A stretch of 64,000 bases of DNA, taken from Candidatus Omnitrophota bacterium. GTDB taxonomy: Bacteria; Omnitrophota; Gorgyraeia; Zapsychrales; Fredricksoniimonadaceae. Position numbers and translations under genes: made by a program. Positions 24,919-53,776 of this stretch are shown piece by piece. A model generated the notes under the pieces. The model was not told where the DNA came from and made no database searches. It worked only from the letters and a program-made list of their open reading frames with translations. Position 1 is the stretch's first letter; each line of letters opens with the position of its first letter. The DNA lies in contig JAUSEK010000023.1 in NCBI GenBank assembly GCA_030650275.1, positions 34,189-98,188 of the forward strand, in the 5' to 3' direction.

Positions 24919-27900
24919 ATGTTTAAAAAATCCCTGAGCATTGCCCTCATTGTTGCTTTTTTCCTGACCTCCCTGGGGCCTATTCCCAAAGCTCATGCCG
25001 ACGTCCTTAATCTTCCCATCCCCGGCACCATGGTCAACTTAAGTCCTGCCTATGAGCCGGTGATGATCAAGGGCTTGACCGTCCACAAAGACAATCCCTT
25101 TTTGTTTGACTTTATCGTGGATGTGGGTGATTCAGGATTGTCCGTAGGGAACGCAGATCTGCGTTCCCTACAAGATGAATCAACCAAATTAATCAAATAT
25201 TTCCTTGCTTCTTTAGCCATTCCTGAAAAAGACCTTTGGGTCAACTTATCTCCATATGAGAAAGACCGCACCATCCCCGAAGAACTCTCCAAGACCGACA
25301 TGGGCCGTGACCTATTAGCCCAGGACTATATCCTCAAACAGATCACCGCCTCACTCATTTATCCTGAAAAGGCCTTAGGAAAAACATTCTGGGACAAGGT
25401 CTATACCAAAGCCCAACAACTCTACGGCACCACAGAAGTTCCCGTCAACACCTTCAACAAGGTCTGGATCATGGCAGACAAGGCAGAGGTGTTTGAACGC
25501 AACAACACCGCATTCGTTACCGACAGCCATCTTAAAGTAATGTTGGAAGAGGATTACCTGGCCCTTGAGCATCAAGGGCGGGTCCTGCAAAGCCACGATG
25601 GAACCCGGCCTGCTCACCAGCTCGCAGGCGCGCTAAGCGGTCCGGCTTATTCGCCGGACCAGCGCCCCGCACCACGCATGGATGCCCACACTCTGGCAAG
25701 CGACATCGTGCGTCAAATAATCCTCCCCGAACTAGAAAAAGAAGTCAACACCGGCAAGAACTTCGCTAATCTTCGTCAAATATTCAACTCCCTCATCCTT
25801 GCCTCCTGGTACAAGAAAAACCTCAAAGAAGCCCTCCTTAACCAGGTTTATTCCAATCAATCAAAGGTCAAAGGCATAGAAAGGGATGTCATTCCCGCGA
25901 AAGCGGGAATCCAATCCAAGGACGATGTGGAAGCCATCTACAACCAGTACCTTGCCGCCTACAAGAAGGGCGTGTTCAATTACATCAAAGAGGACATAGA
26001 CAAAGCCAAAGGCACGACGATACCGAGGAAGTATTTTTCGGGTGGGATGCAGATAGCTCCGCATGATGTGGCCATGACAACCGATCCGCAGAAACTGGCC
26101 AACGCCTTGCCAAAAGACAGGGCCCTGGTGTCTTTTCAAACAGGGATGATGGACCATGTTGTGGCTGTGACGCCGACACCAGACCGGGCGATGATAAACG
26201 AGATGCCGGAGAAGTTACGGGGAATATTTTTTTTCACGGACAAGGGGGCGGTCTTAAGATTGCCCCATTGGGAAAGGTTCGTCAGGGATGTTCCTGTCAA
26301 AGAAATTGATGAAATCATTGATTTTTTGGCCCCCATAATGAGGGAAAATGATTCTTACGCTTCCATAATGAGGAAAAGGCTCTCATCATCGGTGGAAGAA
26401 AGACCCAAAAGACCTTCCGGATCTCAGGAGGCTACTATTAAGAGAGTCATACTTTTATTGGCTGCGCAAGGATATTACTTCCCTGTTGGGAGCGAAAACA
26501 GTAAAGAGCCTTTTTCTGTTATGGAGATAACTTTCGACTCCGGGGCACGTAACTATTATTTGACGCTTAATGATGCGGACGGAAAACCCAGGGAAGATTT
26601 AACAGCGCAGGAGAGGTCAAGATTGATAGGGAATGTACGAACCGCGTTAAGGCTCTTTAAAAGAGATCTTGGTGAAGCAACGTCGCTTCAGGGTAAGGAA
26701 GCGTCACGCCGATCCGATGCCCCGGACCGGGCGATGACGGCGAGGCCGGCCGCATTGGTTCAGATACCGGTAGAAATACAATTATGGATCAATGTATCGG
26801 CTGGCAGCGCCAGGCCTGAAAAATGGATTCCATCGGAAACGGTTGTGGCGGAAATGACCGACATGATTGAAGGCGTTTCACCCCAAAGGTCCGAATCAGG
26901 AAGGATCCGTGCCTGGGTGGACCGTACAAAAGAAAAACTCAGTCAAGAAAAACGCGATCCATTAATAGGGTTGAGAGAAGCGATTTCCATGACTGGATCT
27001 TCGCCGGACCAGCCCATATCCAGCAAATTGAGATCCACGGTCAAAAGACGAGTTTTTCTTCATGTCTCGTCCATTCCCGGGGATGAGCGGACTTCGCCTG
27101 AAACCGTTATTGCCGTCATCAATGAGATGATCAGCAAACAGGTTCCTCTTATGGATGAAACGTCAGATTCGATTCGGCAGTGGGTGAGGTCGCAACAACA
27201 AAGATATCCCGGTGATCAAGAAGAACAACTTGTGCAATTGCGGGAAGGTATTACCCGTGCTGTCGCAGCCGCCGCCCCGGACCGGGCGATGGTGGGCAAG
27301 CCACGGACATTGGATGGAATGATGGATCTTGAAGTTGCACGCATGGTGGTACGAATCAAGCGGTCTATGGAGCTCGTAGAAAGAACAATGGAGAGCGCAG
27401 GCAGGATTGTGCGGTGGTATTCCACAAATAAAAGCGGGTTGACCCCGCAAAGCATAGGAAGCCTTCAGGAGGCGCACACAATATTAGAGTATTATTTGGC
27501 TATATGGAAAATAGATTTAGAAAAATTGGAAACTGTTTTTACGGGTTCTTCCCCGGAAGATTATCAGACCATTGCACCGGCCCTACGCGCCGATATCCGG
27601 CAGGCGAGATCATTAATAGAGAGAATAGCATCCTTACTTCCCAGAGAAAGCGCTGTAGCACCGGACCAGGCGATGATGGGACCGAACCAGCCCAGGTCGC
27701 AGAGCGAAGCCTTGAACATGGCCCTTCAAATCCTGGATCATATTACTGGCACGGATTATCAAAATGCCAAGAGGATTCTTTTTGAAAAGATCCTTGAATT
27801 AAAATTTGGGGCGTTCGGTGAGGCAGTGGTTATCAAGGACCCGCAGCACATCCTTCCTTTATTTGAACTGACCAGAATAGATCCGCCCAGGGCCGAGATC

Positions 27901-28359
27901 ATGGAGGGGCTGGCGGACCTGATCAGTGATGGCATCCTTGATCCCGAGGCTGTGCGTGACATTGTGACCATGGAGGATATCAGGCACTACCGGCGGATAA
28001 ACGCCATGCAAATAGAAACAATAGGGGCAGGGTCACCGGCGGGAGATCTTATACATGCGTTGGAGATATTTGTCGGCGTGGTCACAGATGACAGCGTGTC
28101 CGGCGCCAAAGGCCCGGACCAGGCGATGGCGGCCAAGGGTGGTATTGACCTGAACGCCGGAAACATGAAGTGGAGCGTCCGTAAGGATGGGAGCGGTGTT
28201 GAGATGAAGGTTGACCCGGCCCTGATCGAGCGCATCAAACGCGAAGGCATTGACAGTTTGACGCCGGTGATCTTTCGCGTCACGCCGGTGGTGAGTATTT
28301 GGCCTTTGGTTGGTTTAGATCCGCCCAAAAAGGAAGAAGAGCGTTTGGTCGGGGTGTAA
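24919..28359 (+). CDS. 1146-aa secreted protein with seven reiterated [AP]PD[RQ]AM motifs; no recognised catalytic domain
   Basis: Signal peptide then long ORF with strong coding periodicity; repeated DNA core CCGGACCGGGCGATG / CCGGACCAGGCGATG at 25641, 26175, 26716, 27001, 27285, 27661, 28117. Confidence 0.6.
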   Translation: MFKKSLSIALIVAFFLTSLGPIPKAHADVLNLPIPGTMVNLSPAYEPVMIKGLTVHKDNPFLFDFIVDVGDSGLSVGNADLRSLQDESTKLIKYFLASLAIPEKDLWVNLSPYEKDRTIPEELSKTDMGRDLLAQDYILKQITASLIYPEKALGKTFWDKVYTKAQQLYGTTEVPVNTFNKVWIMADKAEVFERNNTAFVTDSHLKVMLEEDYLALEHQGRVLQSHDGTRPAHQLAGALSGPAYSPDQRPAPRMDAHTLASDIVRQIILPELEKEVNTGKNFANLRQIFNSLILASWYKKNLKEALLNQVYSNQSKVKGIERDVIPAKAGIQSKDDVEAIYNQYLAAYKKGVFNYIKEDIDKAKGTTIPRKYFSGGMQIAPHDVAMTTDPQKLANALPKDRALVSFQTGMMDHVVAVTPTPDRAMINEMPEKLRGIFFFTDKGAVLRLPHWERFVRDVPVKEIDEIIDFLAPIMRENDSYASIMRKRLSSSVEERPKRPSGSQEATIKRVILLLAAQGYYFPVGSENSKEPFSVMEITFDSGARNYYLTLNDADGKPREDLTAQERSRLIGNVRTALRLFKRDLGEATSLQGKEASRRSDAPDRAMTARPAALVQIPVEIQLWINVSAGSARPEKWIPSETVVAEMTDMIEGVSPQRSESGRIRAWVDRTKEKLSQEKRDPLIGLREAISMTGSSPDQPISSKLRSTVKRRVFLHVSSIPGDERTSPETVIAVINEMISKQVPLMDETSDSIRQWVRSQQQRYPGDQEEQLVQLREGITRAVAAAAPDRAMVGKPRTLDGMMDLEVARMVVRIKRSMELVERTMESAGRIVRWYSTNKSGLTPQSIGSLQEAHTILEYYLAIWKIDLEKLETVFTGSSPEDYQTIAPALRADIRQARSLIERIASLLPRESAVAPDQAMMGPNQPRSQSEALNMALQILDHITGTDYQNAKRILFEKILELKFGAFGEAVVIKDPQHILPLFELTRIDPPRAEIMEGLADLISDGILDPEAVRDIVTMEDIRHYRRINAMQIETIGAGSPAGDLIHALEIFVGVVTDDSVSGAKGPDQAMAAKGGIDLNAGNMKWSVRKDGSGVEMKVDPALIERIKREGIDSLTPVIFRVTPVVSIWPLVGLDPPKKEEERLVGV
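25884..25913 (+). repeat. hairpin repeat family copy 2, in-frame inside the 1146-aa gene (encodes ...RDVIPAKAGIQ...)
   Basis: GGATGTCATTCCCGC-GAAA-GCGGGAATCCA, near-identical to copy 1 except loop. Confidence 0.7.
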
Positions 28360-29990: not shown

Positions 29991-31238
29991 ATGTCCCAGG
30001 CCGTCCGCCGTGGCATTATTTTACTTGCCGCTTTGTTGCTTGTCCTCGCCGTGATCTCCGTCGCTATTTTTACCCAGAAAAGGTCCCTGGAAGAGCAGAA
30101 CCGGAACCTGCAGGCCCAGCTGACCGAATACCAGAATAAAGAAAGCCAGCTGCTGGCCAAAACCAAGAAATTGCAGGACGACAGCAAGGCCATGAACGAC
30201 CGCGTCGCGCAGAAGGACAAGGAGAAGGCCGAAGTCCAGGGCATATATGACGAGCTCAAGTCCAAGTATGACGCCGTCGACGGGCAGATGGCGCAGGTCG
30301 CCCGCGAGCGCGACGATTGGAAAAGCCGTCTGGAGACCACCCGCCGCGAGCGCGACGAGTTGATGAAAAAACTGCGCAACCAGCCCGAAAAGATCGTCTA
30401 TAAAGAACGCGAGCCGGCCGCGGTTGCCGCGCCGCAGGGGGAAGGTTACTGGGCCCAGGTCCTTAAGGAAAAGGCCGTGCTGCAGCTGGAACTGGAGAAG
30501 GTCAAGTCCGACCTCGACCAGAGCGTCCTGGAGATCGTGGACTTAAAGAAGAAGAATTCCGACATGCAGTTGGAGATCAAGACCATTCAAAACGAAAAAG
30601 AAGAGATCGTCCGCAAGATCAAATACGGCGAGGACCTCGCCAACAACCTTTCCGTTGAGGTGGCCCGCGCCCGCAATGACCAGAAGATGACCAATGAGCG
30701 CGCCGATAAATTAAAAGATCAGAATCAGCAATTGCAGGACCAGATCAAACAATTGACCACGACCAAGGTGGCTTTGGAAAGAAGCCTCACGCGCCTGAGC
30801 GAAGACAAAGACAAAATGGGTAAGAAGCTCACCCAGACGGAAAGCGTCATCCAGGGCCGCATCGACGAGATCTGGCAGATCAAGCAGAACCTTGACCAGA
30901 AGATCACCGACCTTCCCATAAAACCTTCACCGACTGAAGTGGAATTGTCTCCGATCATTGTCAATGCCGTTCCGGTGGGCCCTGCCCCCGCTGTTGGTCC
31001 CGCGGCGGCCGCCCCTAGGGAAAAACAGCACACCGTCATCAGCATCAATGAGACCAATAATTTTGTCATTGTTGACCTTGGTGAGGCCGACGGCAGCCGG
31101 GTCGGACAGGCATTGAAGGTGTATCGCGGCGGCAATGACATCGCCTCCCTGGAAGTCATTCAGGTCCGCAAAGATATTTCCGCCGCAGACATCAAGAACA
31201 AGTCCGTGCAGCTGAAGGTCGGAGACATTGTCCGCTAA
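29991..31238 (+). CDS. membrane-anchored long coiled-coil protein with C-terminal beta domain
   Basis: N-terminal TM helix, about 270 aa of heptad-rich coiled coil, then a Pro/Ala linker. Confidence 0.5.
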   Translation: MSQAVRRGIILLAALLLVLAVISVAIFTQKRSLEEQNRNLQAQLTEYQNKESQLLAKTKKLQDDSKAMNDRVAQKDKEKAEVQGIYDELKSKYDAVDGQMAQVARERDDWKSRLETTRRERDELMKKLRNQPEKIVYKEREPAAVAAPQGEGYWAQVLKEKAVLQLELEKVKSDLDQSVLEIVDLKKKNSDMQLEIKTIQNEKEEIVRKIKYGEDLANNLSVEVARARNDQKMTNERADKLKDQNQQLQDQIKQLTTTKVALERSLTRLSEDKDKMGKKLTQTESVIQGRIDEIWQIKQNLDQKITDLPIKPSPTEVELSPIIVNAVPVGPAPAVGPAAAAPREKQHTVISINETNNFVIVDLGEADGSRVGQALKVYRGGNDIASLEVIQVRKDISAADIKNKSVQLKVGDIVR

Positions 31239-35105: not shown

Positions 35106-36239
35106 ATGAAATTTAACCGCAATGAATGGGCCGGCGCCTTTGGGGACATAGGCACGGACTTCCCGCTTTTGGTCGGCATGATCCTGGCCTCCGGCCTTGA
35201 CCCGGCCTGTGTGCTGACCGTCTATGGCGTCATGCAGGTGATGACCGGCATCATTTACCGCCGGCCCATGCCTGTCCAGCCCCTGAAAGCCGTTGCCCTC
35301 CTTGTCATCACCCAGAAAATACCGGCAGACACGATTTATGGCGGAGGCCTGGCCATTGCCCTCATCATGCTGGCCCTGACCGTCAGCGGGTCTTTGTCGC
35401 GGCTGGCCCGTCATATCCCAAAGTCCGTCGTGCGCGGCATTCAACTGGGGCTTGGGATCAGTTTGGCCCTTTTGGCCCTGAAGGATTATCTGCCCCGCGA
35501 CGGCGTTATCGGATACGTTTGGGGCGGATGCATTTTCGTTCTCATCCTGGTGCTTTTAAAGAACAGGCGGTTTCCGGCGGCGCTCGCCGCCATTCTTTTG
35601 GGGTTGGTGTATGCGTTTGTATTTAAGATCAATCCTGCGGGTTTTTCCGGCGCTGTCGGATTTCATTTACCCGTTGCGCGCATGCCGGGGTGGGGCGCGG
35701 TGGGAACAGGTTTTATTCTTTTGGCCTTGCCGCAAATTCCTCTGTCTTTGGGCAATTCCATTTTAGCCACGCGTCAGCTCAACGAAGACCTTTTCCCCGA
35801 GCGGCCGCTGACCGTTAATAAGATCGGATGGACCTATACGCTCATGAACATCGTGAGCCCTTTGTTCGGCGGCGTGCCTGTCTGCCACGGTTCAGGAGGG
35901 ATGATGGGGCATTACACGTTCGGCGCGCGCACCGGCGGGTCGCTTCTCATCTACGGCGGGATGTATCTGCTGTTGGGGCTGTTGTTCAGCCAGACCTTCG
36001 CGCAGGTGATCCAGATATTCCCCATGCCTGTCCTGGCGGCGATCCTGTTCGTCGAGGCCTTATCGTTGATGGCGCTGGTGCGGGATCTCTCGTCGGACAG
36101 GGCCGGCTTGTGGGTCGCTTGTATGGTGGGGCTGATGGCCTGCGCTTTGCCTTACGGCTTTATCGTGGGCATGGCTGCCGGTGTCGTCGTTGAGCTGTTC
36201 TTTCGGAAGAATTTAACTTCCAGGGCCAGGGACGCTTAA
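35106..36239 (+). CDS. MOT1-family (MFS_MOT1) putative molybdate transporter
   Basis: Both MOT1 signature motifs: PMPVQPLKAVALLVI and FGGVPVCHGSGGMMGHYTFGARTGGS. Confidence 0.6.
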   Translation: MKFNRNEWAGAFGDIGTDFPLLVGMILASGLDPACVLTVYGVMQVMTGIIYRRPMPVQPLKAVALLVITQKIPADTIYGGGLAIALIMLALTVSGSLSRLARHIPKSVVRGIQLGLGISLALLALKDYLPRDGVIGYVWGGCIFVLILVLLKNRRFPAALAAILLGLVYAFVFKINPAGFSGAVGFHLPVARMPGWGAVGTGFILLALPQIPLSLGNSILATRQLNEDLFPERPLTVNKIGWTYTLMNIVSPLFGGVPVCHGSGGMMGHYTFGARTGGSLLIYGGMYLLLGLLFSQTFAQVIQIFPMPVLAAILFVEALSLMALVRDLSSDRAGLWVACMVGLMACALPYGFIVGMAAGVVVELFFRKNLTSRARDA

Positions 36240-36419
36240 AGCGCCGGGGTCAACGATGCGTTCGTTGTGGGAGTCCTGGATCTCTTCGTCCCATATTTTG
36301 AAATGGGCGTTGATGGAGCGAAGGACATACGGGCCCATGACCACGATCCCCAGGATGACCAAAAGGACGATGAGGGAATATTCGATCAAGGATTGGCCGT
36401 GCCGATGATGTGCGCGCAT
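36213..36419 (-). CDS. Flp-family (type IVb) pilin-like small protein
   Basis: 68 aa from ATG 36419; Flp motif GQSLIEYSLIVLLVILGIVVMG; overlaps 3' end of MOT1 gene; no tad locus nearby. Confidence 0.35.
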   Translation of the reverse strand: MRAHHRHGQSLIEYSLIVLLVILGIVVMGPYVLRSINAHFKIWDEEIQDSHNERIVDPGALSVPGPGS

Positions 36420-36666
36420 GGTGAAAGTATATACCACATGTCCGCTCCCGGCAAGCGCGATCCTTGACACCCGAATACCGTATCGTTTTATTTCCATTTC
36501 AAAGAAAACTACCCATAGGGCATAAATGTAAAAATAGAAATATACCCCCATATGGGGCTTTCGCTATATTGGGTGAGCTGCGGCTTATTTTCTATTGACA
36601 AAGGGAGAAGATGTGATAAATTGGTCATGTAAAAAAAGTGTATGAGAGTTATTCTAAAGATAACCT

Positions 36667-37467
36667 ATGATACCTGAAAATACATCAAAGACCTTAGGCC
36701 CGATCGAGACCAATATCGTCGCCCGCTTAACATACGAGAAAAAGTTGATCGTCACTGTAGAGGATCTCGATCAATTATTTAAACTCGCCCCAGAGGATAG
36801 AAAACAGGTTGTTTTCAGGCTCAAAAGGAAAAAAATACTGGACCCTATAAAGCGCGGCGTCTATGCCTTTTCCCCGCTTGAAGCCGGCCCGGAAGGGACA
36901 GGGATCGATGAACTGCTCATTCCTCCGCTTTTTTTCCCAAAAAAGAATTACTACGTCGGTTACTCAACCATGTTTAATTACTACGGTTTTTCGGAACAAC
37001 TTTTTCAGACCGTATATGTTCTTAATACAACCTTACGTATGGAAAGGATCATTTGCGGTATTTCCTATAAGTTCATAAGAATTCCGGAAAGCCGCATCTA
37101 TGGCCGGGAAATCATTAAAGTGAAAAATACGGATGCCCTCGTCAGCTCTAAAGAGAGGACGCTCATCGACCTTCTTTATTTTAACAAGCCGGTCGGCGGC
37201 ATTAATAACGCCGTCCAGATCTTCAAACAAGTTGTTGAAGAAAAGAAATGTGATATCAAGAAGCTCATTCAATACGCCGCACGTTTTCCAAATATCACGA
37301 CCAGAAAACGCGTCGGCCTGATCCTTGATGATTTAGGCATTACCGAAACCACCCTTAGCCCGCTTATCAAAAGCGTGGCAAAAACCGCGCTGAGTTCGCT
37401 GACTGGATCGCGCAAAGGAACGCTCAACAAAAAATGGAGAGTCATTGTTAATGATCCACAAAAATAA
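36667..37467 (+). CDS. abiEi: AbiEi-family antitoxin / transcriptional regulator (type IV TA, abortive infection)
   Basis: AbiEi_4-like architecture; overlaps downstream AbiEii gene by 23 nt; AT-rich context. Confidence 0.6.
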   Translation: MIPENTSKTLGPIETNIVARLTYEKKLIVTVEDLDQLFKLAPEDRKQVVFRLKRKKILDPIKRGVYAFSPLEAGPEGTGIDELLIPPLFFPKKNYYVGYSTMFNYYGFSEQLFQTVYVLNTTLRMERIICGISYKFIRIPESRIYGREIIKVKNTDALVSSKERTLIDLLYFNKPVGGINNAVQIFKQVVEEKKCDIKKLIQYAARFPNITTRKRVGLILDDLGITETTLSPLIKSVAKTALSSLTGSRKGTLNKKWRVIVNDPQK

Positions 37468-38329
37468 AGAAGAATTTATAAAAACCCTTGAAAGAGCGTC
37501 CAGGAAGAAAGAGTTTTTATTGCCTCTATTGGAAAAAGATTACTATTTAACGTTGGTCCTTTCCCGGGTGCACGAGCTTTCAGAAGACCTCATTTTTAAA
37601 GGAGGGACATGCTTAAATAAGATTTATTACGCATATTATCGTTTGAGCGAAGATCTTGATTTTAGTATGAAGCTCCCACAGTACGAAGCGACGCGCGGCG
37701 AAAGACGCAAGTGTATCCAGTCGGTGAAGGACCATATAAAGAAGTTTGTGGAGCCATTAGATATAAAGATCGATGGATCGGACAATCCTGGGCGCAACGA
37801 ATCCAAGCAGTATGTATATTATTTTGTTTATCAATCAGCTCTACGCCAGGTCGAAGCAAAAATTAAATTTGAGATCGGCCTTAGGTATAATCCGATCCAC
37901 GCGACAGAGAAACGCCAAGTCCAACATAATTTTTTGCATCCCTTTACCGGAGAACCGTTATTTGATGGAGGCAAGGTCAATTGTTTGTCCTTAAAAGAGA
38001 TCGTGAGTGAAAAGCTCCGGGCCGCGGCCTTAAGGAAGACCATCGCGCCGCGCGATTTCTATGACCTCGATTTTATTTTGCGTAATCAATTCAACCTTGC
38101 GGACCAGGAAGTGATAGATCTTTTTGAGAAAAAGATTAAGGAAGATGGCGGAGATCCGGATTTAGCAAAGTATCGCACCAATCTCGGGCGATCCAATGAT
38201 GAAATCAAGGACATGCGTTCACGGATTGAAAATGAATTATTTGACGTATTAACGCCGGGCGAACGTGAGCATTTTGATCTCGACAAGGCGCTGATGAGGA
38301 TAAATGAGGCTTTAAAAGGGCTGAAATAA
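37445..38329 (+). CDS. abiEii: AbiEii/AbiGii-family nucleotidyltransferase toxin (DUF1814)
   Basis: Motif GGTCLNKIYYAYYRLSEDLDF (GGTxL...R.SxDxDF nucleotidyltransferase signature). Confidence 0.7.
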   Translation: MLMIHKNKEEFIKTLERASRKKEFLLPLLEKDYYLTLVLSRVHELSEDLIFKGGTCLNKIYYAYYRLSEDLDFSMKLPQYEATRGERRKCIQSVKDHIKKFVEPLDIKIDGSDNPGRNESKQYVYYFVYQSALRQVEAKIKFEIGLRYNPIHATEKRQVQHNFLHPFTGEPLFDGGKVNCLSLKEIVSEKLRAAALRKTIAPRDFYDLDFILRNQFNLADQEVIDLFEKKIKEDGGDPDLAKYRTNLGRSNDEIKDMRSRIENELFDVLTPGEREHFDLDKALMRINEALKGLK

Positions 38330-39285
38330 TGATGCCGGTTATCCGCGCGGATGAGAAAGTGACCTCTCTCGCGCTTCCCCAACCGTTCCTGGAACGCTTG
38401 CGTTCCATCATTCCAGTTCCCCTCTTGCCGCAGGTCGAGGGTTCTTTTTCTGCAAAGACCCACGCGGGACTTCGCGTCAATACCCTTAAGACCACGGTGC
38501 CGGAAGCGAAAGCATTCCTTAAAGGTATGGACATCTCCTGGCAGGAGGTGCCGTGGTGCTCCTACGCTTTGTGGGTGCCGGTACCATCGCTTAAGGAAAT
38601 TTTAGCGTCGTCGTGGGCTTCGGAAGGAAAATTGTACAGCCAGGGTGTTGAAAGCCAGATCCCGGTTTTGGTTTTGGATCCCAGGCCCGGGGAAACGGTT
38701 TTGGACTTATGCGCCGCGCCGGGCAGTAAGACGACACAGATCGCCGCTCATATGAACAATGAAGGCACGCTGGTGGCCAACGAACCGGTGCGGGACAGGT
38801 TTTTCCGGCTAAGATCCGTCGTGGACTTGATGGGCGCGCGGGTCACTCTCAAGATGGTGGACGGACAGCGTTTTGACGGCCGCGGGACCCTGTTCAACCG
38901 TATTTTGGTGGATGCCCCGTGCAGTTCGGAGGGCCGTTTTAACGTCCATGAACCCAAGACCACCCGGTATTGGAGTGTGCGAAAGGTCCATGAAATGGCG
39001 CACAAGCAAAAAGGCCTGCTCCTGAACGCCAGCCGTCTTTTAAAACCCGGCGGGATTTTGGTCTACGCCACGTGCACGTTCGCCGTGGAAGAAAATGAAG
39101 CGGTGGTGGACTGGTTATTGCGCAAGACACAAGGCCTCCTGTCTTTGGAGCCGGTCGCTTTGGACGGCGTGCCGTCTTATCTGGCCCAAACACCCGTCGC
39201 CCCTCAAGCGGCGCGCTGTTTAAGGGTATTGCCGGATGGGCGCATGGAAGGTTTTTTTACGGCCAAATTTGTTTTAACAGGTTAA
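38329..39285 (+). CDS. RsmB/RsmF (NOP2/Sun) family rRNA cytosine-C5 methyltransferase
   Basis: SAM motif LDLCAAPGSKT, catalytic region DAPCSSEG and TCT/ATCTF. Confidence 0.8.
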   Translation: MMPVIRADEKVTSLALPQPFLERLRSIIPVPLLPQVEGSFSAKTHAGLRVNTLKTTVPEAKAFLKGMDISWQEVPWCSYALWVPVPSLKEILASSWASEGKLYSQGVESQIPVLVLDPRPGETVLDLCAAPGSKTTQIAAHMNNEGTLVANEPVRDRFFRLRSVVDLMGARVTLKMVDGQRFDGRGTLFNRILVDAPCSSEGRFNVHEPKTTRYWSVRKVHEMAHKQKGLLLNASRLLKPGGILVYATCTFAVEENEAVVDWLLRKTQGLLSLEPVALDGVPSYLAQTPVAPQAARCLRVLPDGRMEGFFTAKFVLTG

Positions 39286-39323: not shown

Positions 39324-40088
39324 ATGATTTGCTTTCGGATATCCACTATGCGCCGCATGTTGTTTCTTTTATTTTTTGTCGTTTTTTATTCCCCTGCTAT
39401 TTTTGCCCAGCAAGGACCGTCAGAGAGCCTGACGCTGGACATTAACGTCGTCCAGATCGTGCTCAATGATGAACACCGCGACGGGGTGGACTGGGAGGCC
39501 ATTGTTTCGGATTTTCACGTACTCCCCTTAAAAAAAGAGGACAATTCTTTCTGGATGGATAAAAGATACCGTTTAAGCGCCGGCACCGTTTCCGCCGAGG
39601 ATTACGCGGTTTTGCTGGACGCTTTGGACACCGTCGGAAAGATGTCGCAGATCCCGCAGGAAAGCGTGCGCTTGACGATGGATGAACCCCTGGCTTCTAC
39701 TTTAAGTTTAGGCGAAGGCAAGGAGCAGACGGTACGGCTTGGACTGCGTTTTGCCTCTTCGGTCCATGCGGGCCCGTCCATCGTCATCGAGCCGGCCATC
39801 GGGGTGATCTTCAAAGACGGGGGCAAGCCGCCGGTGGCCCTGACCTTAAAGACCCAGACCCAGGCCGCGATCAAGGAAAACACGATCATTATCCTGGGCG
39901 GACTTACGGAGGAAACCGAGATCACCAAAATGCATAAATTCCCCATTTTGGGCAACCTGCCTTTGGTCGGTCTGGTTTTTCGTAACCAGGGCCGCTGGAT
40001 GCAAAAGACCGAGACCGTGATCTTTCTGATCCCGCGCGCGCAGGCCGTTGACGCAGAACAACCACAGCAGCCCCCTCAAACCCAATGA
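39324..40088 (+). CDS. short periplasmic protein carrying only a C-terminal secretin domain
   Basis: Signal peptide; C-terminal secretin motif IIILGGLTEETEITKMHKFPILGNLPLVGLVFRNQGRWMQKTETVIFLIPR. Confidence 0.5.
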   Translation: MICFRISTMRRMLFLLFFVVFYSPAIFAQQGPSESLTLDINVVQIVLNDEHRDGVDWEAIVSDFHVLPLKKEDNSFWMDKRYRLSAGTVSAEDYAVLLDALDTVGKMSQIPQESVRLTMDEPLASTLSLGEGKEQTVRLGLRFASSVHAGPSIVIEPAIGVIFKDGGKPPVALTLKTQTQAAIKENTIIILGGLTEETEITKMHKFPILGNLPLVGLVFRNQGRWMQKTETVIFLIPRAQAVDAEQPQQPPQTQ

Positions 40089-47650: not shown

Positions 47651-49900
47651 ATGAAACGCGACCACGCCAAACTCATCTGCGATGTCGGTGAACTGACCGG
47701 GCTTTTCCATGACGCGCCGGGCATGGAGGATTTTCTTAGGAAAATAACCGCCATGATCACCCGGCACATGGCCTGCGAGGTCTGTTCCATCTACCTTTAT
47801 TATCAGGACAGCCGCGAGCTTGTCCTGAAAGCCACCACCGGATTGAACCCGTCTTGCGTCGGGCATGTGAGAATGCGCCTGGGGGAAGGATTGACGGGTC
47901 AGGCCCTCAAGGAGCGCCGGCCCATCTGCGAAGGCCGGGCCAAAGATAACCCGCATTTCCGTTATTTCCCCGGGATCGGCGAGGAGAAGTTTGAATCGTT
48001 CCTGGCCGTGCCCATTTTGCGCGGCACCGTTGAAATAGGGGTCATGGTCATCCAGAGCGAGAAGAAAAATTATTTCACGCCCGAGGACATCCAGATCTTC
48101 CGCGCCGTGACCTCCCAATTGGCCGCCACCATTGAGACCGCCCGGCTTCTCATCACCCTCAACGACAAGGAACGTCAAAAGCGCGCCCCCGCCGTTGCCG
48201 CGGACCTGAAATTCGTCAAAGGCCGTTCGGGGGCCGAAGGCGTGGCCCTGGGCAATGCCGTTGTCGTGGATGAGGCCATGACAGACCTGCAGCGGTTCAC
48301 CCAGACCTCCCACACGCACACCGAAGATGATTTTCACAAAGCCGTGCAAGCGACCGAGGCACAATTGGAGGACCTTCAGGAGCAGGTCGAGACAACACTG
48401 TTTGACGTGGCCGCGCTCATCTTTACGGCGCAGATCCTTATGCTTAAGGACAAAGGATTTTCAGATGTCATCGCCGCTCAGATCCGCCATGGCGTCGATC
48501 CGCCGCAGGCGGTCGTGTCCGTGGTGCAGGAATATGTCCGCAAATTCGCGTCCATCAACGACAGTTATTTGAGGGAAAAAATTTACGACGTCAAGGACAT
48601 GGGCCGGCGCGTCCTGGAGAACATGACTGGTTTAAAAGACCCTCACGCGGATTTCGAGGGCCGCATCGTCATTGCCCGTGAACTTTTTCCGTCGGATGTG
48701 CTGAAACTTTTTTCGCAAAAAGTCAAAGGCATCATCCTGCTCAACGGCGGGGTGACCTCGCACGTGGCGATCCTGTCGCGTTCATTGAACATTCCTCTGG
48801 TCATCGCCGATGAACCCGGGCTTTTAGCTGTGCCCGGCGGCACCCGGGTCCTTTTGGACGCGGTCATGGGCACCATCCATATCAATCCTGATGAGGACAC
48901 GGTCCGCAAGGTCCTGGACCGTGAGGACCTCAACAAAGACCTGGACCGCCTCAAACGCCTGATCCGGGAACATCCGAAGACGAAAGACGGCGTTGCCGTC
49001 AAACTCATGGCCAACATCAATCTGTTGGGGGACCTGAAGGCCGCCAACGAATTCAAGGCCGACGGCATCGGGCTTTACCGCACGGAATTCCCGTTTTTGA
49101 TCCGCAGCAATTTTCCGTTGGAAGAAGAACAGTATCTGATCTACCGCCGTCTTGTGCAAGGCATGCCAGGCAAAGAGATCACGTTTCGCACGCTCGATAT
49201 CGGCGGGGACAAGATCCTGCTGCATTACAATTACGGCAGGGAAGAGAACCCGTTTTTGGGTCTGCGGTCCATCCGTTTTTCCTTAAAACACAAGGATGTG
49301 TTCATCCAGCAGATACGGGCGATCCTGCGCGCGGGCCACGGCCACGACATGCGTGTTTTGTTCCCCATGATCTCTTCGGTGGACGAATTTTTGGAAGCCA
49401 AAGGCATTGTGCAGGAATGCGCCCATGACCTGGCCAAAGAAGGCATAAAATATATTAAAGACCCGCCCATAGGGACCATGATCGAATTGCCTTCGGTCAT
49501 TGAGATCATTGACGAATTGGCCCAGGAAGCGGACTTTTTGAGCATCGGCACCAATGACCTCATCCAGTATCTGCTCGCCGTGGACCGCAACAATGAAAAG
49601 GTGGCGGACTTGTATATGCCTTATCATCCGGCGGTGTTAAGGGCGCTCAAGAAAGTGGCGGATGCCGGACTCAAATACGGCAAGGACGTGTCCGTTTGCG
49701 GGGACATGGCCCATTCCGTCCAATTCCTGCCGTTTTTATTAGGGATCGGTTTGCGGCGTTTCAGTATGGACGCGCGGTATTTACCCAGTGTGCATGAAAA
49801 GTTAAGCACCATTGTTCTGGCCGAGGCCGAAATCAAAACGCGGGAGATCCTTCAACAGAGCAAGGCTGTCCGCACCGCCCAATTGCTGGACGATTTCTAA
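47651..49900 (+). CDS. ptsP: phosphoenolpyruvate-protein phosphotransferase with N-terminal GAF domain (EI-Ntr)
   Basis: GAF domain then PEP-utilising enzyme domains; 749 aa. Confidence 0.85.
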   Translation: MKRDHAKLICDVGELTGLFHDAPGMEDFLRKITAMITRHMACEVCSIYLYYQDSRELVLKATTGLNPSCVGHVRMRLGEGLTGQALKERRPICEGRAKDNPHFRYFPGIGEEKFESFLAVPILRGTVEIGVMVIQSEKKNYFTPEDIQIFRAVTSQLAATIETARLLITLNDKERQKRAPAVAADLKFVKGRSGAEGVALGNAVVVDEAMTDLQRFTQTSHTHTEDDFHKAVQATEAQLEDLQEQVETTLFDVAALIFTAQILMLKDKGFSDVIAAQIRHGVDPPQAVVSVVQEYVRKFASINDSYLREKIYDVKDMGRRVLENMTGLKDPHADFEGRIVIARELFPSDVLKLFSQKVKGIILLNGGVTSHVAILSRSLNIPLVIADEPGLLAVPGGTRVLLDAVMGTIHINPDEDTVRKVLDREDLNKDLDRLKRLIREHPKTKDGVAVKLMANINLLGDLKAANEFKADGIGLYRTEFPFLIRSNFPLEEEQYLIYRRLVQGMPGKEITFRTLDIGGDKILLHYNYGREENPFLGLRSIRFSLKHKDVFIQQIRAILRAGHGHDMRVLFPMISSVDEFLEAKGIVQECAHDLAKEGIKYIKDPPIGTMIELPSVIEIIDELAQEADFLSIGTNDLIQYLLAVDRNNEKVADLYMPYHPAVLRALKKVADAGLKYGKDVSVCGDMAHSVQFLPFLLGIGLRRFSMDARYLPSVHEKLSTIVLAEAEIKTREILQQSKAVRTAQLLDDF

Positions 49901-51453
49901 TGCGCGACCGTGTCCTGACGATCCTCCTGCTTGTTTTTCTGTTCGGCCTGTTCGCCGCGGACCTGGCCCGGCCCATCAATTTGACGGCGGTGGACATCGG
50001 CCGTCACGTCAAGAACGGGGAACTTCTCCTGCAGGGGCAATGGGACCTCCTGCACAGGAATTTTTATTCCTTCACGCATCCCGATCATCCGTTCATCAAC
50101 CATCACTGGCTGTTCGGTGTCCTGTCCTACGGCGTGCATCAATGCGCCGGGTTCACGGGCCTGTCCATCGTTTATATCGGGGTATTGCTGGGGGCTTTGT
50201 TCTTTTTTTTGCGCGCGGCCGCTTTGCGCGGACATTTCGCGCTGGCCATCTTTTTCGCGTTTTTGTCCCTGCCCATTCTGGCCGACCGACGGGAGATACG
50301 CCCCGAGGGGTTAAGCCTTTTATTCATGGGGCTGTATTTTTATCTGTTGACCAAACTGTCTTTGGGGCAGGTCCGGCAACGGACGGTCTTGATCATTTTG
50401 GGAATAACGCAGGTCATTTGGGTCAATACCCATATTTTCTTTTTTATGGGGCCGTTGCTGACGGCGATATTCTTGTGGGAAGGGTATGCGCGCAAATGCA
50501 GTGTATGTGTGCGCGCCCTGTGGCCTTTGCTGATCCTGCTGTCGGCGGTCGATCTCATTAACCCCTCGGGATTGGCCGGCGCCTTGACGCCGTTGAACAT
50601 TTTTAAGGAATTCGGATACCGTCTTGCGGAAAATCAGACGGTGTTTTTTATGATGGACCGTTTCCCGGGCCAGAAGGAATACGCGTATTATCTGGGGCTG
50701 GTCCTCGTTGCCGTCGTCGGGATCATTTTGGCCGTGCGCGCGCGGGGATGGAAGGCCAACGCGCCGTTCATTCTGCTGGCCGTGTTCGCGGCCTGCGCCG
50801 GCCTTAAAGCCGTGCGCCTGATGACGCCCTTCGCGTTTTTTCTGGTCCCGCTGGGGTCTTTTTTTTACGGCCAGGCCGAGGGGAAGTTACCGCCAAAAAT
50901 ACAGAAAACCATCCGCGTATTTTTGCTCGCCGCCGCCCTCGTCCTGGGCGTTATCCAGGCGTCGGGTTTGCGCAACAGCCCCATCGGTGTGGGTCTGGCC
51001 CCCGGGGTGAATGTGTCAGCGGAGTTTTTCAAGCAAACCGGCATCCAAGGGCCGGTGTTCAGCAATTACGATATCGGCGGATATTTGATCTATCATTTGT
51101 ACGGCCGGGAGCCGGTGTTCGTGGACAATCGGCAGGAGGCCTTCCCGCCGGAATTTTTTAAGGGAACGTATGTCCCGATGCAGGAGGACAAAGAGGTCTG
51201 GAAAAAAGCGGACGGCCGCTGGGGGTTTAACGCGGTGTATTTTTACCGGCATGACCTGACCCCGTGGGGACAGGCCTTCCTTGTCCGGCTGGTGGACGAC
51301 CCGGACTGGGCCCCGGTGTTCGTGGATGGATATACGATCATTTTTTTAAAACGCAACGGCCCCAACCAGCGCGTCATTGACCGTTTCCAACTGCCGCGGT
51401 CCATGTTTTCGGCGTCCGGCCCCGCCGTTGGCGGGGCTGGACAGGCCGGATGA
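49900..51453 (+). CDS. polytopic membrane protein, possible GT-C-fold glycosyltransferase
   Basis: About 11 TM helices plus periplasmic C-terminal domain; ATG overlaps ptsP stop (TAATG); family uncertain. Confidence 0.4.
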   Translation: MRDRVLTILLLVFLFGLFAADLARPINLTAVDIGRHVKNGELLLQGQWDLLHRNFYSFTHPDHPFINHHWLFGVLSYGVHQCAGFTGLSIVYIGVLLGALFFFLRAAALRGHFALAIFFAFLSLPILADRREIRPEGLSLLFMGLYFYLLTKLSLGQVRQRTVLIILGITQVIWVNTHIFFFMGPLLTAIFLWEGYARKCSVCVRALWPLLILLSAVDLINPSGLAGALTPLNIFKEFGYRLAENQTVFFMMDRFPGQKEYAYYLGLVLVAVVGIILAVRARGWKANAPFILLAVFAACAGLKAVRLMTPFAFFLVPLGSFFYGQAEGKLPPKIQKTIRVFLLAAALVLGVIQASGLRNSPIGVGLAPGVNVSAEFFKQTGIQGPVFSNYDIGGYLIYHLYGREPVFVDNRQEAFPPEFFKGTYVPMQEDKEVWKKADGRWGFNAVYFYRHDLTPWGQAFLVRLVDDPDWAPVFVDGYTIIFLKRNGPNQRVIDRFQLPRSMFSASGPAVGGAGQAG

Positions 51454-51489: not shown

Positions 51490-51760
51490 GCGCCTGTAGC
51501 TCAGTTGGATAGAGCAACAGCCTTCAACAGGAGCCTTCATGGGGAAAAAGAACCCATGAAGTGGACGTCGCTAAGTCGGTAGATACCCTTTAGGGGGCAA
51601 TACCGAGCTACCCAAGTGGGGAGTGTAGAGACTTTACACGGCGGGGCTGAGATGCCCAAGAGAAAGTCCGGCCAGCAACTCCCGCTTTTGCGGGACGGTT
51701 AAGGCAACTTAATGCTGGAAGCTAAGCTGTAGGTCGCACGTTCGATCCGTGCCAGGCGCG
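51490..51760 (+). tRNA. tRNA-Arg (anticodon UCU) interrupted by a group I intron between U34 and C35
   Basis: Exons 51490..51524 and 51722..51760 join to a 74-nt tRNA nearly identical to E. coli argU (AGCTCAGTTGGATAGAGCAAC...CCTTCTAAG); acceptor GCGCCTG/CAGGCGC, anticodon stem ACAGC/GCTGT, T-arm GCACG-TTCGATC-CGTGC. Confidence 0.8.
51525..51721 (+). ncRNA. 197-nt group I intron (IC3-like, similar to Azoarcus tRNA-Ile intron) without internal ORF
   Basis: Conserved core strings GUGUAGAGACU and UUAAGGCAAC, and GGCAAUACCGAGC...AAG, match the Azoarcus ribozyme; 5' exon ends in U, intron ends in G (omega-G 51721). Confidence 0.7.
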
Positions 51761-51776
51761 TTTTTTATTTAACTCG

Positions 51777-52190
51777 ATGCATCATACAAAAGATAAAGCA
51801 GATATAGGTTTTTGTAAGGTCATTACGGATCTTACGATGAAGGGGTATGTGCCATGCATACCTTTTTCAGAACATCAAGCGTTTGATCTTGTTGTGGTTG
51901 GGCGGGACGGCACCACTTTCAGGATCCAGATTAAATACTCAACATTAAGGAAGAATGGGTCTGTGGATGTCCGGTATAGGAGAAACTGGGCGGATAAGCA
52001 CGGCGTACACACCAGAATTTATTCAAAAGACGAATTCGATTATTACGCGATTTATTGTCCAGAGAAAGATGCAGTGCTTTATGTCCGTAATACTCCGGAT
52101 TGCCCGAAGTCGATCCGTTTTGATAAGCCAGCCAACAATCAGATGCGGCATATTAAATGGGCAAATGACTATTTGAAAATCAAGAAATGA
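51777..52190 (+). CDS. PD-(D/E)xK nuclease-fold protein, 16 nt downstream of the intron-containing tRNA (candidate free-standing homing-endonuclease-like gene)
   Basis: Motif order E(SEHQ)...D(FDLVVVGRDG)...IQIK consistent with PD-(D/E)xK; AT-rich, low-GC context. Confidence 0.4.
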   Translation: MHHTKDKADIGFCKVITDLTMKGYVPCIPFSEHQAFDLVVVGRDGTTFRIQIKYSTLRKNGSVDVRYRRNWADKHGVHTRIYSKDEFDYYAIYCPEKDAVLYVRNTPDCPKSIRFDKPANNQMRHIKWANDYLKIKK

Positions 52191-52265
52191 TATCAGTTGG
52201 GCGGCGTTATTCTTGTTGAGTGTTTTTGGGTTTTTTGGTAATGTATTGCCCTTTTCAGTACTGTT

Positions 52266-52297
52266 GTCATTCCCGAATGTTTCTGTCGGGAATCCAG
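52266..52297 (+). repeat. hairpin repeat family copy 3 (GTCATTCCCGA-ATGTTTCTG-TCGGGAATCCAG)
   Basis: Same conserved flanks as 24871 and 25884 copies with a different loop. Confidence 0.6.
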
Positions 52298-52402
52298 ACA
52301 CGGCTTTATCGTACAATGGTGGGTGCCCCGCATGTCTGGAATAAACATTATGGAATGCGGGACGACCAACCACTTTTTCTGGGACAAAAAAACGTAGTAA
52401 GT

Positions 52403-52480
52403 GGTGGGTGTAGCTCAGTTGGTTAGAGCGGAAGATTGTGGATCTTCAGGTCGCGGGTTCAAATCCCGTCACTCACCCCA
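52403..52480 (+). tRNA. tRNA-His (anticodon GUG), with encoded G-1 and 3' CCA
   Basis: Manual fold: G-1, acceptor GTGGGTG/CACTCAC (one G:U), D stem GCTC/GAGC, anticodon stem GAAGA/TCTTC, loop UUGUGGA, discriminator C73. Confidence 0.85.
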
Positions 52481-52558: not shown

Positions 52559-53776
52559 ATGACAATCTATCAACCGCGTGAAATTACGAAAACATTAATT
52601 GAGTCGCTTGAAAACATGCCAGTGGTGGTGCTTTCCGGAATGCGCCAGACGGGTAAAAGCACCCTTCTTTTAAACCAGCCGCAATTAAAGAAAAGAAGGT
52701 ATGTCAGCTTCGATGATTTTAACACTCTCGAATTAGCCCGCAGTAATCCGGAGGAGCTCCTGTCCGGTAAAGAACCCATTACTATTGATGAAGCGCAAAA
52801 GTATCCTGAGATCTTAAATGTTATCAAGAAAGAAGTGGATAGAAATCGCAAGCCCGGGAGATTTCTCTTAAGCGGATCGGCTAATTTCTTGCTCCTTAAA
52901 AAAGTCGCCGAAAGCCTGGCTGGCAGGGCAGTCTATATGACTCTTCATCCATTTACTCGAAGGGAAATGTTAGGGGTTATTAAAGAAAAACCGGCCCTCG
53001 CGTGTTTTATTGATACCGGCGCGTTTCCTAAACGTGAAATCAATCCTGTTTCGTTAAAGGAAATCTTAAAAGGCGGTATGCCTTCCGTATGCCTTGGCCA
53101 GGTAAAAAAGCCAGAGGTGTGGTTTCGCGGCTATGAACAAACATATCTGGAGCGTGATATACGCTCCTTAGCTCAAGTGGCGGATTTGGTATCATTTCGA
53201 AATCTTTTGCATCTGGTGGCTCTTCGGAATACAAAGATCTTAAACATAAGTGAGCTTGCTCGTGACGCGAAACTAAACGTTGTCACTGCCTCGCGCTATC
53301 TTTCGCTTATGGAAGCTTCATTTATTTTAAGCCGAGTTCAGCCCCATTTTAAAAATAAAACAACCCGGCTTATTAAATCTCCTAAAGTATATTTATCCGA
53401 TACAGGGCTGTCCGCTTACCTTGAGGAGATCAAAGATTCAAATGTAAACGAGATGGCAAGAGGGGCGTTGTTGGAAAGTTACGTGGCGCAGAATTTAGAG
53501 GGAATATTTTCCGCTTATTATCCCGACGCGAAGATTACCTATTGGAATATTCAAGGCAGATACGAGGTCGATTTTATTATAGAGGTGGGTGGCAAAACGC
53601 TCGCGATTGAAGTAAAAAGCGGCAGCCGGTGGAAAGAAAGCGATCTGGCAGGCATAAAAGCGTATTTAGCCAGCAATAAAGAATGCCTTGGCGGATTATT
53701 GGCTTACAATGGCCGCGATGTTTTAAGGCTTGGCAAAAACATATGGGCTGTTCCGGTTAATTTATTGTTAAGTTAG
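52559..53776 (+). CDS. AAA+ ATPase with C-terminal DUF4143-type domain
   Basis: Walker A GMRQTGKST; architecture typical of the AAA_14 plus DUF4143 family; lower-GC gene. Confidence 0.65.
   Translation: MTIYQPREITKTLIESLENMPVVVLSGMRQTGKSTLLLNQPQLKKRRYVSFDDFNTLELARSNPEELLSGKEPITIDEAQKYPEILNVIKKEVDRNRKPGRFLLSGSANFLLLKKVAESLAGRAVYMTLHPFTRREMLGVIKEKPALACFIDTGAFPKREINPVSLKEILKGGMPSVCLGQVKKPEVWFRGYEQTYLERDIRSLAQVADLVSFRNLLHLVALRNTKILNISELARDAKLNVVTASRYLSLMEASFILSRVQPHFKNKTTRLIKSPKVYLSDTGLSAYLEEIKDSNVNEMARGALLESYVAQNLEGIFSAYYPDAKITYWNIQGRYEVDFIIEVGGKTLAIEVKSGSRWKESDLAGIKAYLASNKECLGGLLAYNGRDVLRLGKNIWAVPVNLLLS

Follow-up and report, generated by a model that had tools for sequence, protein, structure and literature searches.

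A probably recently acquired AbiE module beside a native pilin-like gene in an Omnitrophota genome

The AbiEii toxins of AbiE abortive-infection modules are defined by the motifs hG[G/S]-x15-DhD with a family-specific Arg, KLxAaxxR and +DxxD, each of which is needed for toxicity (Dy et al. 2014, PMC3985639). Homologous AbiE systems confer phage resistance (PMC3985639), and the same paper names plasmid stabilisation as a further property of AbiE. According to a 2026 preprint, AbiEii modifies tRNAs with pyrimidines, and the AbiEi antitoxin binds AbiEii and induces its inactivating auto-phosphorylation at T65 (bioRxiv 10.64898/2026.01.19.700257). Here we describe an AT-rich islet with such a pair in a 64-kb stretch of contig JAUSEK010000023.1 from a Candidatus Omnitrophota bacterium (the window, meaning the whole stretch of DNA analysed), together with the small minus-strand gene beside it, whose product resembles type IV pilins; Tad and type IVa systems are reported to be common in Omnitrophota (PMC10066038). 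Our analysis indicates that the islet is very probably an intact AbiE module, recently acquired from low-GC relatives and inserted by illegitimate recombination between the native pilin-like gene and rsmF. The target would have been the head-to-head gap of ~20 bp that separates these two genes in this Omnitrophota lineage. The genes concerned are the following.

35106-36239, plus strand: MOT1-type transporter, from the list of open reading frames (ORFs)
36213-36551, minus strand: long ORF whose final 68 codons begin at ATG 36419
36213-36419, minus strand: small native gene, 68 aa, with a 27-nt overlap with the MOT1 3' end
36583-38358, plus strand: AbiE cassette proper, the stretch common to copies in unrelated contexts
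36667-37467, plus strand: abiEi, 266 aa, antitoxin and autoregulator by family
37451-38329, plus strand: abiEii, 292 aa, DUF1814 nucleotidyltransferase toxin by family
38329-39285, plus strand: rsmF, an RsmB/F-type RNA m5C methyltransferase ORF (Pfam Methyltr_RsmB-F, 4.2e-42), native part 38373-39285

The AbiE pair, its empty sites and its copies elsewhere

The sequence of the window recurs without differences in a Logan contig from SRR13727527. Through homologues of the small minus-strand protein, we found five contigs (L002-L006). In both gene blocks, mnmG-cysK-MOT1 and rsmF-secretin-amidase-murI, their identity to the window is ~90%, and they keep MOT1, the small gene and rsmF without the AbiE pair. 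A sixth contig (P0004, small protein 67% identical) has the same arrangement, and the pair is also missing from the more distant L010 and L012 (small protein 53% and 38% identical), which argues that the empty state is ancestral. In blastn alignments, homology between the window and the empty sites ends at 36441 and restarts at 38373, and L002-L006 carry 15 nt (GAAAGCGAGGCAAGT) in place of the window's 1931 bp. Since GGCAAG(C/T)GC recurs at 36450-36458 of the window, the real left junction appears to lie at ~36458/36459. The metagenome-assembled genome (MAG) contig JACPXN010000125.1 (L007; GTDB representative, Candidatus Omnitrophota) carries this insertion too, with an identical position of the left junction; its cassette is 94% identical to that of the window and its flank 91.5%. 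Together, these alignments indicate that the AbiE cassette was inserted at a site between two native genes.

Base composition changes over the same stretch. GC content in 300-bp windows is 0.54-0.62 up to ~36300, 0.39-0.44 at 36450-38250 and 0.53-0.58 past 38400, a step from ~0.56 to 0.43 over ~36442-38372. When GC was computed for every 1931-bp window in the 64 kb (mean 0.537, sd 0.035), the lowest value (0.427) came from the one that starts at 36401, and comparably low GC is found in just one more region, ~51500-52100. GC at third codon positions (GC3) is 0.50 in abiEi and 0.47 in abiEii, versus 0.66-0.74 in eight neighbouring genes; the small minus-strand ORF, at 0.68, is neighbour-like. 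A preliminary description of this DNA had noted the drop in GC between MOT1 and the rsmB-type gene, which both the window GC and the GC3 comparison bear out, and had presumed horizontal acquisition, for which the empty-site relatives and the presence of the same cassette in unrelated contexts now provide direct support. The islet that it delimited at 36213-38329 stands as an islet, with other limits: the foreign DNA runs from ~36442 (or 36459) to 38368-38372.

By every criterion that could be tested, the pair appears to belong to the AbiE/DUF1814-COG5340 family, in agreement with the same description. AbiEii matches Pfam PF08843 (1.7e-31, 110.5 bits with a cut-off of 22.5, residues 39-265) and the PADLOC AbiEii model (4.9e-38, 129.5 bits). 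AbiEi matches Pfam AbiEi_1 PF09407, a C-terminal domain (6.5e-9, 36.6 bits with a cut-off of 22.2), and the PADLOC AbiEi model over residues 11-262 of 266 (9.7e-46, 154 bits). The GGTxL...SxDLDF motif reported earlier is present in AbiEii as KGGTCL...SEDLDF. Motifs I and II consist of KG53G54, exactly 15 residues and D70-L-D72, with R66 as the family Arg; motif III is K190LRAAALR197, with Ala at the aromatic position, and motif IV is R203DFYD207. All of these motif residues are invariant among eight homologues. Also invariant in the alignment is S68 (in R66-L-S68-E-D70), two residues before the first catalytic Asp, which by its position is the equivalent of the S. agalactiae phosphoacceptor T65.

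The two genes lie on the same strand, antitoxin first. Because MIHKNK is common to all homologues aligned, we take ATG 37451 as the real abiEii start, which gives an overlap with abiEi of 17 nt; a start at 37445 would give 294 aa and an overlap of 23 nt, and an exact look-up of this 294-aa AbiEii found no record, gene callers having used other starts. The abiEii stop is TAA, followed by an in-frame TGA. The ratio of non-synonymous to synonymous substitution rates (dN/dS) is 0.10-0.14 for abiEi when compared with its four closest copies (L007, L013, L021 and L022) and 0.07-0.10 for abiEii when compared with its two closest (L013 and L021), and stop codons are absent from every abiEi and abiEii copy examined. 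These values point to purifying selection on both genes.

The same unit recurs far from this locus. A 92%-identical copy lies within a lipopolysaccharide glycosyltransferase cluster (L013-L016) and a 78%-identical copy adjoins RadC and a type I restriction-modification system (L017-L020). At the nucleotide level, identity is 88.9% to L013/L016/L023 over window positions 36583-38358 and 73.5% to L017 over 36594-38330. We then compared 80 further metagenome loci, chosen with an AbiEi identity of at least 72%. The window's flanks occur in none of them, and homology is confined to the cassette: it starts at 36552-36690 (at 36581-36595 where it reaches furthest upstream) and, in loci with a complete abiEii, ends at 38250-38358. 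The flanks of these 80 loci fall into at least 46 clusters on the left and at least 35 on the right. Cassette GC is 0.34-0.44 in every host and flank GC is 0.30-0.57 (median 0.38), which suggests that the cassette is at home in low-GC genomes and is conspicuous only in a few high-GC hosts such as that of the window. The JGI metagenome Ga0209515 holds both the empty-site contig L005 and the closest cassette copy, L021 (92% nucleotide identity, in a context of 38% GC), so recipient type and likely donor pool coexist there.

A search for AbiEii relatives returned 2044 at E<1e-10 and more than 120 clusters at 73% identity or above, nearly all of 289-296 aa. Many are labelled Omnitrophota or Omnitrophica, and a few as Methanoperedens or Proteobacteria MAGs, and the subfamily is seen in environmental assemblies only. 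We therefore regard the pair, as judged by sequence, as a distant subfamily known from metagenomes alone. No relative of the cassette was found among viral contigs (IMG/VR); GenBank phages gave only fragments of 26-27% identity, and sequenced plasmids reached at most 34.5%. As a separate observation, several cassette copies show toxin decay, with an internal abiEii deletion of the nucleotidyltransferase core (for example, the equivalent of window positions 37529-37940). In other copies homology extends through abiEi only, with the antitoxin retained. The copies of these two kinds are L065-L067, L071, L072, L075, L057, L068, L088, L091 and L099, and L030, L033 and L034.

On the left the edge of the cassette is the promoter itself, and on the right it is the TAA stop, usually followed by an in-frame TGA. 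The control region and the DNA to its left contain the following.

36595-36622, plus strand: abiE promoter, with -35 TTGACA, a 16-nt spacer and the extended -10 TGTGATAAATT
36647-36666, plus strand: inverted repeat AGTTATT-N-AGATAACCT around the abiEi ribosome-binding site, with column conservation of at least 0.9 in 53 promoters
36459-36582, no strand: left tail of the inserted DNA, not in most cassette copies; 36552-36582 is common to the closest relative, L021

In a consensus scan, the abiE promoter has 10 of 12 consensus positions plus TG. Across 53 distinct cassette promoters, TTGACA (36595) and TGTGaTAAA.T are the most conserved non-coding blocks, and the ATGTAAAAAAAG block is also among the most conserved non-coding columns. 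The inverted repeat is a candidate AbiEi operator or mRNA hairpin. The left tail contains two minus-strand sites with a hairpin and a T-run, at 36558-36544 and 36522-36510. No recombinase gene is present in the 1.9-kb islet, which holds two genes only. A repeat search across it found short, chance-level repeats, with no terminal repeats and no duplication. Other copies have no shared end motif at the cassette edges, their flanks diverging directly outside promoter and stop codon. We found no att-like site, no adjacent tRNA in a tRNA scan, and no match in or beside the islet in Rfam and tRNA scans. The cassette thus lacks the hallmarks of the self-mobile elements considered (insertion sequence, transposon, integron cassette or integrative island), and a clear target duplication is missing as well. 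Illegitimate recombination is the preferred route of insertion.

From knowledge of the family, the module would consist of an autoregulated promoter, the AbiEi antitoxin and repressor, and the AbiEii DUF1814 nucleotidyltransferase toxin. AbiEii would add nucleotides to tRNA 3' ends and so stop translation; AbiEi would bind AbiEii and cause it to inactivate itself by phosphorylation of the Ser that corresponds to T65, and the putative winged helix-turn-helix (wHTH) domain of AbiEi would repress the operon. Phage infection or loss of the module would then free the toxin, with abortive infection or addiction as the outcome. It is possible, although we do not favour it, that the main role of the module is selfish, as an element for addiction or stabilisation, or else lies in growth regulation in response to stress, and that this host gains no phage protection from it. 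Such a role would fit the plasmid stabilisation mentioned above (PMC3985639), the spread of the unit as a minimal self-contained cassette, and the several copies that lost the toxin core but kept abiEi, a decay pattern expected of addiction modules. It fits less well with the phage resistance that homologous AbiE systems confer (PMC3985639) or with the cassette copy that adjoins a type I restriction-modification system and RadC.

The small minus-strand gene and its pilin-like family

The 68-aa product of the small gene begins with MRAHHRHG/QSLIEY (the slash marks the cleavage site) and continues with a 20-residue hydrophobic stretch and then MGPYVLRSINAHFKIWD..QDSHNER. Its processing site, HRHG/QSLIEYSLIVLLVILGIVVMG, contains a cleavage motif that is invariant in the family. 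The preliminary description had reported a 68-aa minus-strand ORF overlapping the MOT1 3' end, with a Flp signature (GQSLIEYSLIVLLVILGIVVMG) and no tad locus in the window. The ORF (36213-36419, minus strand), its 27-nt overlap and the signature are all as reported, and a Pfam scan of ~45 window ORFs agrees that no tad locus is present: it found no tad or type IV pilus machinery bar a secretin-domain protein at 39324-40088. A motif scan of all six frames of the window found no second pilin-like N-terminus.

The closest Pfam family of the small protein is Flp_Fap PF04964, with 12.1-13.4 bits (cut-off 32.2) and E-values of 0.07-0.18; its relatives reach 14-18 bits and E-values of 0.0024-0.04. 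When 156 family N-termini were compared with 120 Caulobacter-type Flp pilins in hhalign, the match had a probability of 75.8% (P 2.3e-5) in the correct register (G/ATAIEY with G/QSLIEY), and a reversed-sequence control gave 1.2%. The small protein had no N_methyl or TIGR02532 match even at E up to 10, its +1 residue being Gln. An AlphaFold model consists of one helix (residues 17-61, core pLDDT 82-93). A Foldseek search of this model against the PDB gave no matches, which is uninformative for a lone helix, and a PDB search with the small-protein profile returned transmembrane-helix noise only. These results support a type IV pilin-like protein whose predicted signal is nearest to Flp. Its product would be a mature helix of ~60 residues released at the class III signal G/QSLIEY, probably through a prepilin peptidase whose gene lies in another part of the genome.

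An exhaustive profile search placed the small protein in a family of 617 representative clusters at E<=0.001 (241 at <=1e-10). The family domain is N-terminal, and the proteins are mostly 300-800 aa long and cysteine-rich, with no Pfam domain or with Gly_rich_2/DUF642 only; of ten members whose names we looked up, nine were unnamed and one was a 'hypothetical protein'. By these comparisons, the small gene is a short form of a distinct, unannotated pilin-like family. A long (350-450 aa), Cys-rich homologue and pilM-pilN-pilO are arranged head to head in L008, L009 and L011; a 114-aa ORF and pilQ come next in L009 and L011. The regions with the pilin-like homologue and the pil genes, on 'Planctomycetales'/Omnitrophota MAG contigs, are as follows.

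L008, 3-1841: pilin-like homologue and pil genes
L009, 5887-9885: pilin-like homologue and pil genes
L011, 5875-9879: pilin-like homologue and pil genes

In the window group, L010 and L012, rsmF is found in place of pilMNO(P)Q, and in L010 and the window group the gene after rsmF encodes a protein of ~250 aa that keeps a C-terminal secretin domain only. The window's version of this protein (39324-40088, 254 aa) has a signal-peptide-like N-terminus and only a C-terminal secretin domain (Pfam 2e-14), and its tblastn match to PilQ from L011 covers only the last ~60 residues. The order rsmF-secretin-amidase-murI is kept in L002 and L010 (50% identity). One possibility is that the 254-aa protein is the reduced remnant of a PilQ once encoded in a pilMNOPQ operon.

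The earlier Flp-pilin call holds in part: the N-terminus is type IV pilin-like and closest to Flp, while membership of Flp_Fap fails at the cut-off and a role as the Flp pilin of a Tad system goes beyond these data. We consider it rather doubtful that a Tad system encoded elsewhere in the genome polymerises the small protein as a bona fide Flp pilin. Its G/xxxxEY motif, hydrophobic helix and Flp-like size, the ranking of Flp_Fap as its closest Pfam family, the in-register hhalign match against the reversed control and the presence of Tad systems in many Omnitrophota (PMC10066038) would all suit such a pilin. Set against these, the score is under the Flp_Fap cut-off, the leader is short and basic as in type IVa pilins, the homologues in L008, L009 and L011 adjoin pilMNO(P)Q and not tad genes, most family members have large Cys-rich domains that Flp pilins are without, and no tad gene lies within the 64-kb window. 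It is possible, though less likely than not, that the family extends across Omnitrophota and was ancestrally head to head with pilMNOPQ. Its marks would be the G/QSxIEY signal, the conserved MGPYVLRSxNAHFKxWD segment and, in most members, a large Cys-rich ectodomain, and its proteins would serve as fibre subunits or tip adhesins of the pili by which these ultra-small, probably host-dependent bacteria attach. The ~60-residue form from a leaderless mRNA would then have been reduced to a bare pilin in this particular lineage.

Conservation argues that the small ORF is a real gene. In its 47-codon core, the window differs from L002 by seven synonymous and no non-synonymous changes and from L006 by eight and one, and in control frames (antisense and +1) the proportions of synonymous and non-synonymous differences (pS and pN) are about equal. 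Small-gene dN/dS is 0-0.14 between the window and every locus but L007, where two synonymous and two non-synonymous changes give 0.28; for L008, L009 and L011, the loci with unsaturated dS, it is 0.09-0.14. Nine homologues share 21 invariant columns and have variable tails. The gene is present at the empty sites L002-L006 and has a promoter of its own.

36426-36454, minus strand: small-gene promoter, with -35 TTGCCG at 36454-36449, a 17-nt spacer and -10 TATACT at 36431-36426

TTGCxx-17-TATACT is found upstream in six of the seven other homologue groups (L002/L006, L007, L008, L009, L011 and L012). The exception, L010, has TTGAGG with an 11-nt spacer; its promoter block lies upstream of a stop codon, which indicates conservation as DNA and not as protein. 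Since the -10 ends 6 nt before ATG 36419, a leaderless mRNA and a 68-aa product are predicted; an alternative GTG start at 36437 would give 74 aa. On the public Logan contig, the gene is called at 112 aa, with 44 extra codons (36420-36551, minus strand) that run into the inserted DNA. Since the relatives with empty sites do not have this extension, and since it is located upstream of the conserved promoter, it is best regarded as an annotation artefact. An exact look-up of the 68-aa ORF found no record, gene callers having used other starts.

As judged from these comparisons, the small gene is native and real and lies outside the islet. Two earlier suggestions about the ORF do not hold: it is not carried by the islet, being present at the empty sites with a GC3 of 0.68 like its neighbours, and it is not a pseudo-start, being conserved and under purifying selection. 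It is very unlikely that the ORF is a chance antisense frame or the decaying stump of a long gene. It does lie on the strand opposite to nearly every window gene, fails every curated family model, is among the few short members of a family of mostly 300-800 aa, and was called in a 112-aa version partly encoded by inserted DNA. These points are outweighed by the dominance of synonymous changes (7/0 against L002 and 8/1 against L006) over control frames with pS ~ pN, by the persistence of short forms down to 66% identity with a C-terminal DSHNER motif of their own, and by the conserved promoter.

The junctions, the rsmF frame and the direction of change

At the empty sites, the small gene and rsmF have a head-to-head arrangement with a functional overlap: the first start codon in frame with rsmF (GTG in ACATGTG) lies between the -10 and the -35 of the small-gene promoter. 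The insertion lies after ~six rsmF codons, and a tblastn search of the window's RsmF against the empty-site loci matched from residue 16 only. Both the -35 (TTGCCG) and the -10 (TATACT) of the small gene were preserved through the insertion. The two junctions contain the following.

38329-38372, plus strand: new 5' end of the rsmF frame, made up of the cassette 3' tail (38329-38358) and then a 14-nt filler (38359-38372)
36442-36449, no strand: 8-nt patch CCGCTCCC in the spacer of the small-gene promoter, where the empty sites read GAAAGCGA; both sides are conserved

The new first ten rsmF codons are ATG ATG CCG GTT ATC CGC GCG GAT GAG AAA (38329-38358), and the same 3' tail follows abiEii in L013/L023 and L025, in other contexts. 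The ATG of the rsmF frame and the abiEii stop have one base in common (TAATG), and native rsmF restarts at 38373. The cut in rsmF was repaired by fusion of its frame to the cassette 3' tail, and rsmF and the following genes are probably co-transcribed with the AbiE module. In about 15 of 63 loci, several of them duplicates, a co-directional ORF starts no more than 3 nt from the abiEii stop, so the cassette often lies directly before a host gene, as with rsmF. The loci with such an ORF are L027, L035-L037, L060/L061/L063, L065-L075 and L092, and that of L060 has a sugar-transferase-like N-terminus (MIKRIFDFILS...). A general coupling of the cassette to its downstream gene was rejected, because only these ~15 of 63 loci show it and TAATGA is more simply read as a tandem stop.

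The sole likeness between the two junctions is a GCGC/GTGC microhomology. We considered a 17-nt target duplication and rejected it, since each copy would keep half the sequence; microhomology plus filler is preferred. The reverse complement of the patch at 36442-36449 matches the empty-site patch at five of eight positions, and a small inversion, a conversion tract and chance are all conceivable origins of the patch.

Several observations weigh against parts of this account. The window and L007 diverge less in the cassette (6%) than in the flanks (8.5%), so the filled allele may have spread by homologous recombination and not by simple descent. AbiEi scores 20.0 bits with AbiEi_4 PF13338, the N-terminal wHTH, against a cut-off of 25 (the full-length PADLOC match spans this region), and 12.9 bits with the NCBIfam TAA_AbiEi equivalog against a cut-off of 150; being so far under the latter, AbiEi belongs to a distant subfamily. 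A phmmer search found no PDB relative of either AbiEi or AbiEii, so the structural equivalence of the residues is based on motif spacing. Finally, rsmF could start at GTG 38359 instead of ATG 38329, so that translational coupling is no more than a possibility. That the AbiE pair is ancestral here and was cleanly deleted in relatives without it is hardly tenable: presence and absence alone do not give the direction of change and the window, L007 and L002 are nearly equidistant (flanks 88-91.5%), but the pair's GC and GC3 are foreign to the window genome and typical of the cassette everywhere, the more distant P0004 contig, L010 and L012 are also without it, the empty sites have an intact rsmF start and promoter overlap with no scar, and dozens of unrelated flanks enclose copies of the unit.

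The AbiE module itself offers nothing conceptually new. Its insertion is a well-documented natural case of a defence or toxin-antitoxin cassette moving as a bare promoter-to-stop unit; the evidence extends to the empty site, the two junctions, the filler DNA, the repair of the host's reading frame and a probable donor pool that shares the habitat. The bare cassette, illegitimate junctions and host-frame repair are interesting natural history and not a new kind of system. The cassette may have placed the downstream genes from rsmF to murI under toxin-antitoxin promoter control. The uncharacterised pilin-like family of 617 clusters is the more novel lead, though a peripheral one: its gene neighbourhood ties it to the assembly genes of type IV pili, and the lifestyle of the phylum is considered pilus-dependent.

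Elsewhere in the window, a second AT-rich spot (51500-52480, GC ~0.43) holds a 137-aa ORF (51777-52190, plus strand) with no family match assigned, and directly downstream of it tRNA-His (52404-52480) and then a DUF4143/AAA_14 ATPase (52559-53776). This spot is a possible second acquired islet, small in size and located at a tRNA gene. Four further ORFs had no Pfam match at 1e-6: 24919-28359 (1146 aa), 29991-31238 (415 aa), 49900-51453 (517 aa) and 13535-14173 on the minus strand (212 aa). The 517-aa ORF at 49900-51453 looks multi-spanning.

Comparison with known systems

For the small protein, the nearest described relatives are the Flp/Fap type IVc (Tad) pilins, such as Caulobacter PilA (P0278). 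It shares with them the G/xxxIEY register, a hydrophobic helix of ~20 residues, a mature size of ~60 aa predicted to form a single long helix, and a pre-protein within 50-90 aa. Unlike them, it is under the PF04964 cut-off and has an 8-aa leader and the family segment MGPYVLRSxNAHFKxWD, and its relatives are mostly long, Cys-rich proteins beside pilMNOPQ. With type IVa pilins and minor pilins, which carry the G/FTLIE class III signal, it has in common a short basic leader ending in Gly and a Glu at +5, and the position of its homologues beside pilM-pilN-pilO-pilQ is a further likeness. It differs from them in having Gln and not Phe at +1, Tyr at +6 and no N_methyl or TIGR02532 match.

The AbiE pair is most like the AbiE systems of L. 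lactis pNP40 and S. agalactiae (Dy et al. 2014, PMC3985639; Arrowsmith et al. 2026 preprint). Like them, it is bicistronic, with overlapping genes for antitoxin and then toxin, a COG5340-type antitoxin and a DUF1814 nucleotidyltransferase toxin. Also shared are hG[GS]-x15-DhD, the motif II Arg, KLxAxxxR, +DxxD, a Ser/Thr two residues before the first Asp, and a close upstream sigma-70-type promoter with a conserved inverted repeat. It differs in the overlap (17 nt versus 4 nt), in being too distant for a phmmer link to a solved chain or for the NCBIfam equivalog, and in being chromosomal and abutting a housekeeping operon. The MenAT systems of Mycobacterium tuberculosis (MenT1-4/MenA) gave no match to the pair at the sequence level. 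Their toxins belong to the same DUF1814 superfamily as AbiEii, MenA3-type antitoxins follow the same COG5340 logic as AbiEi, and by analogy the mechanism would be alike: tRNA 3'-end nucleotidylation, neutralised by antitoxin-induced phosphorylation of the toxin.

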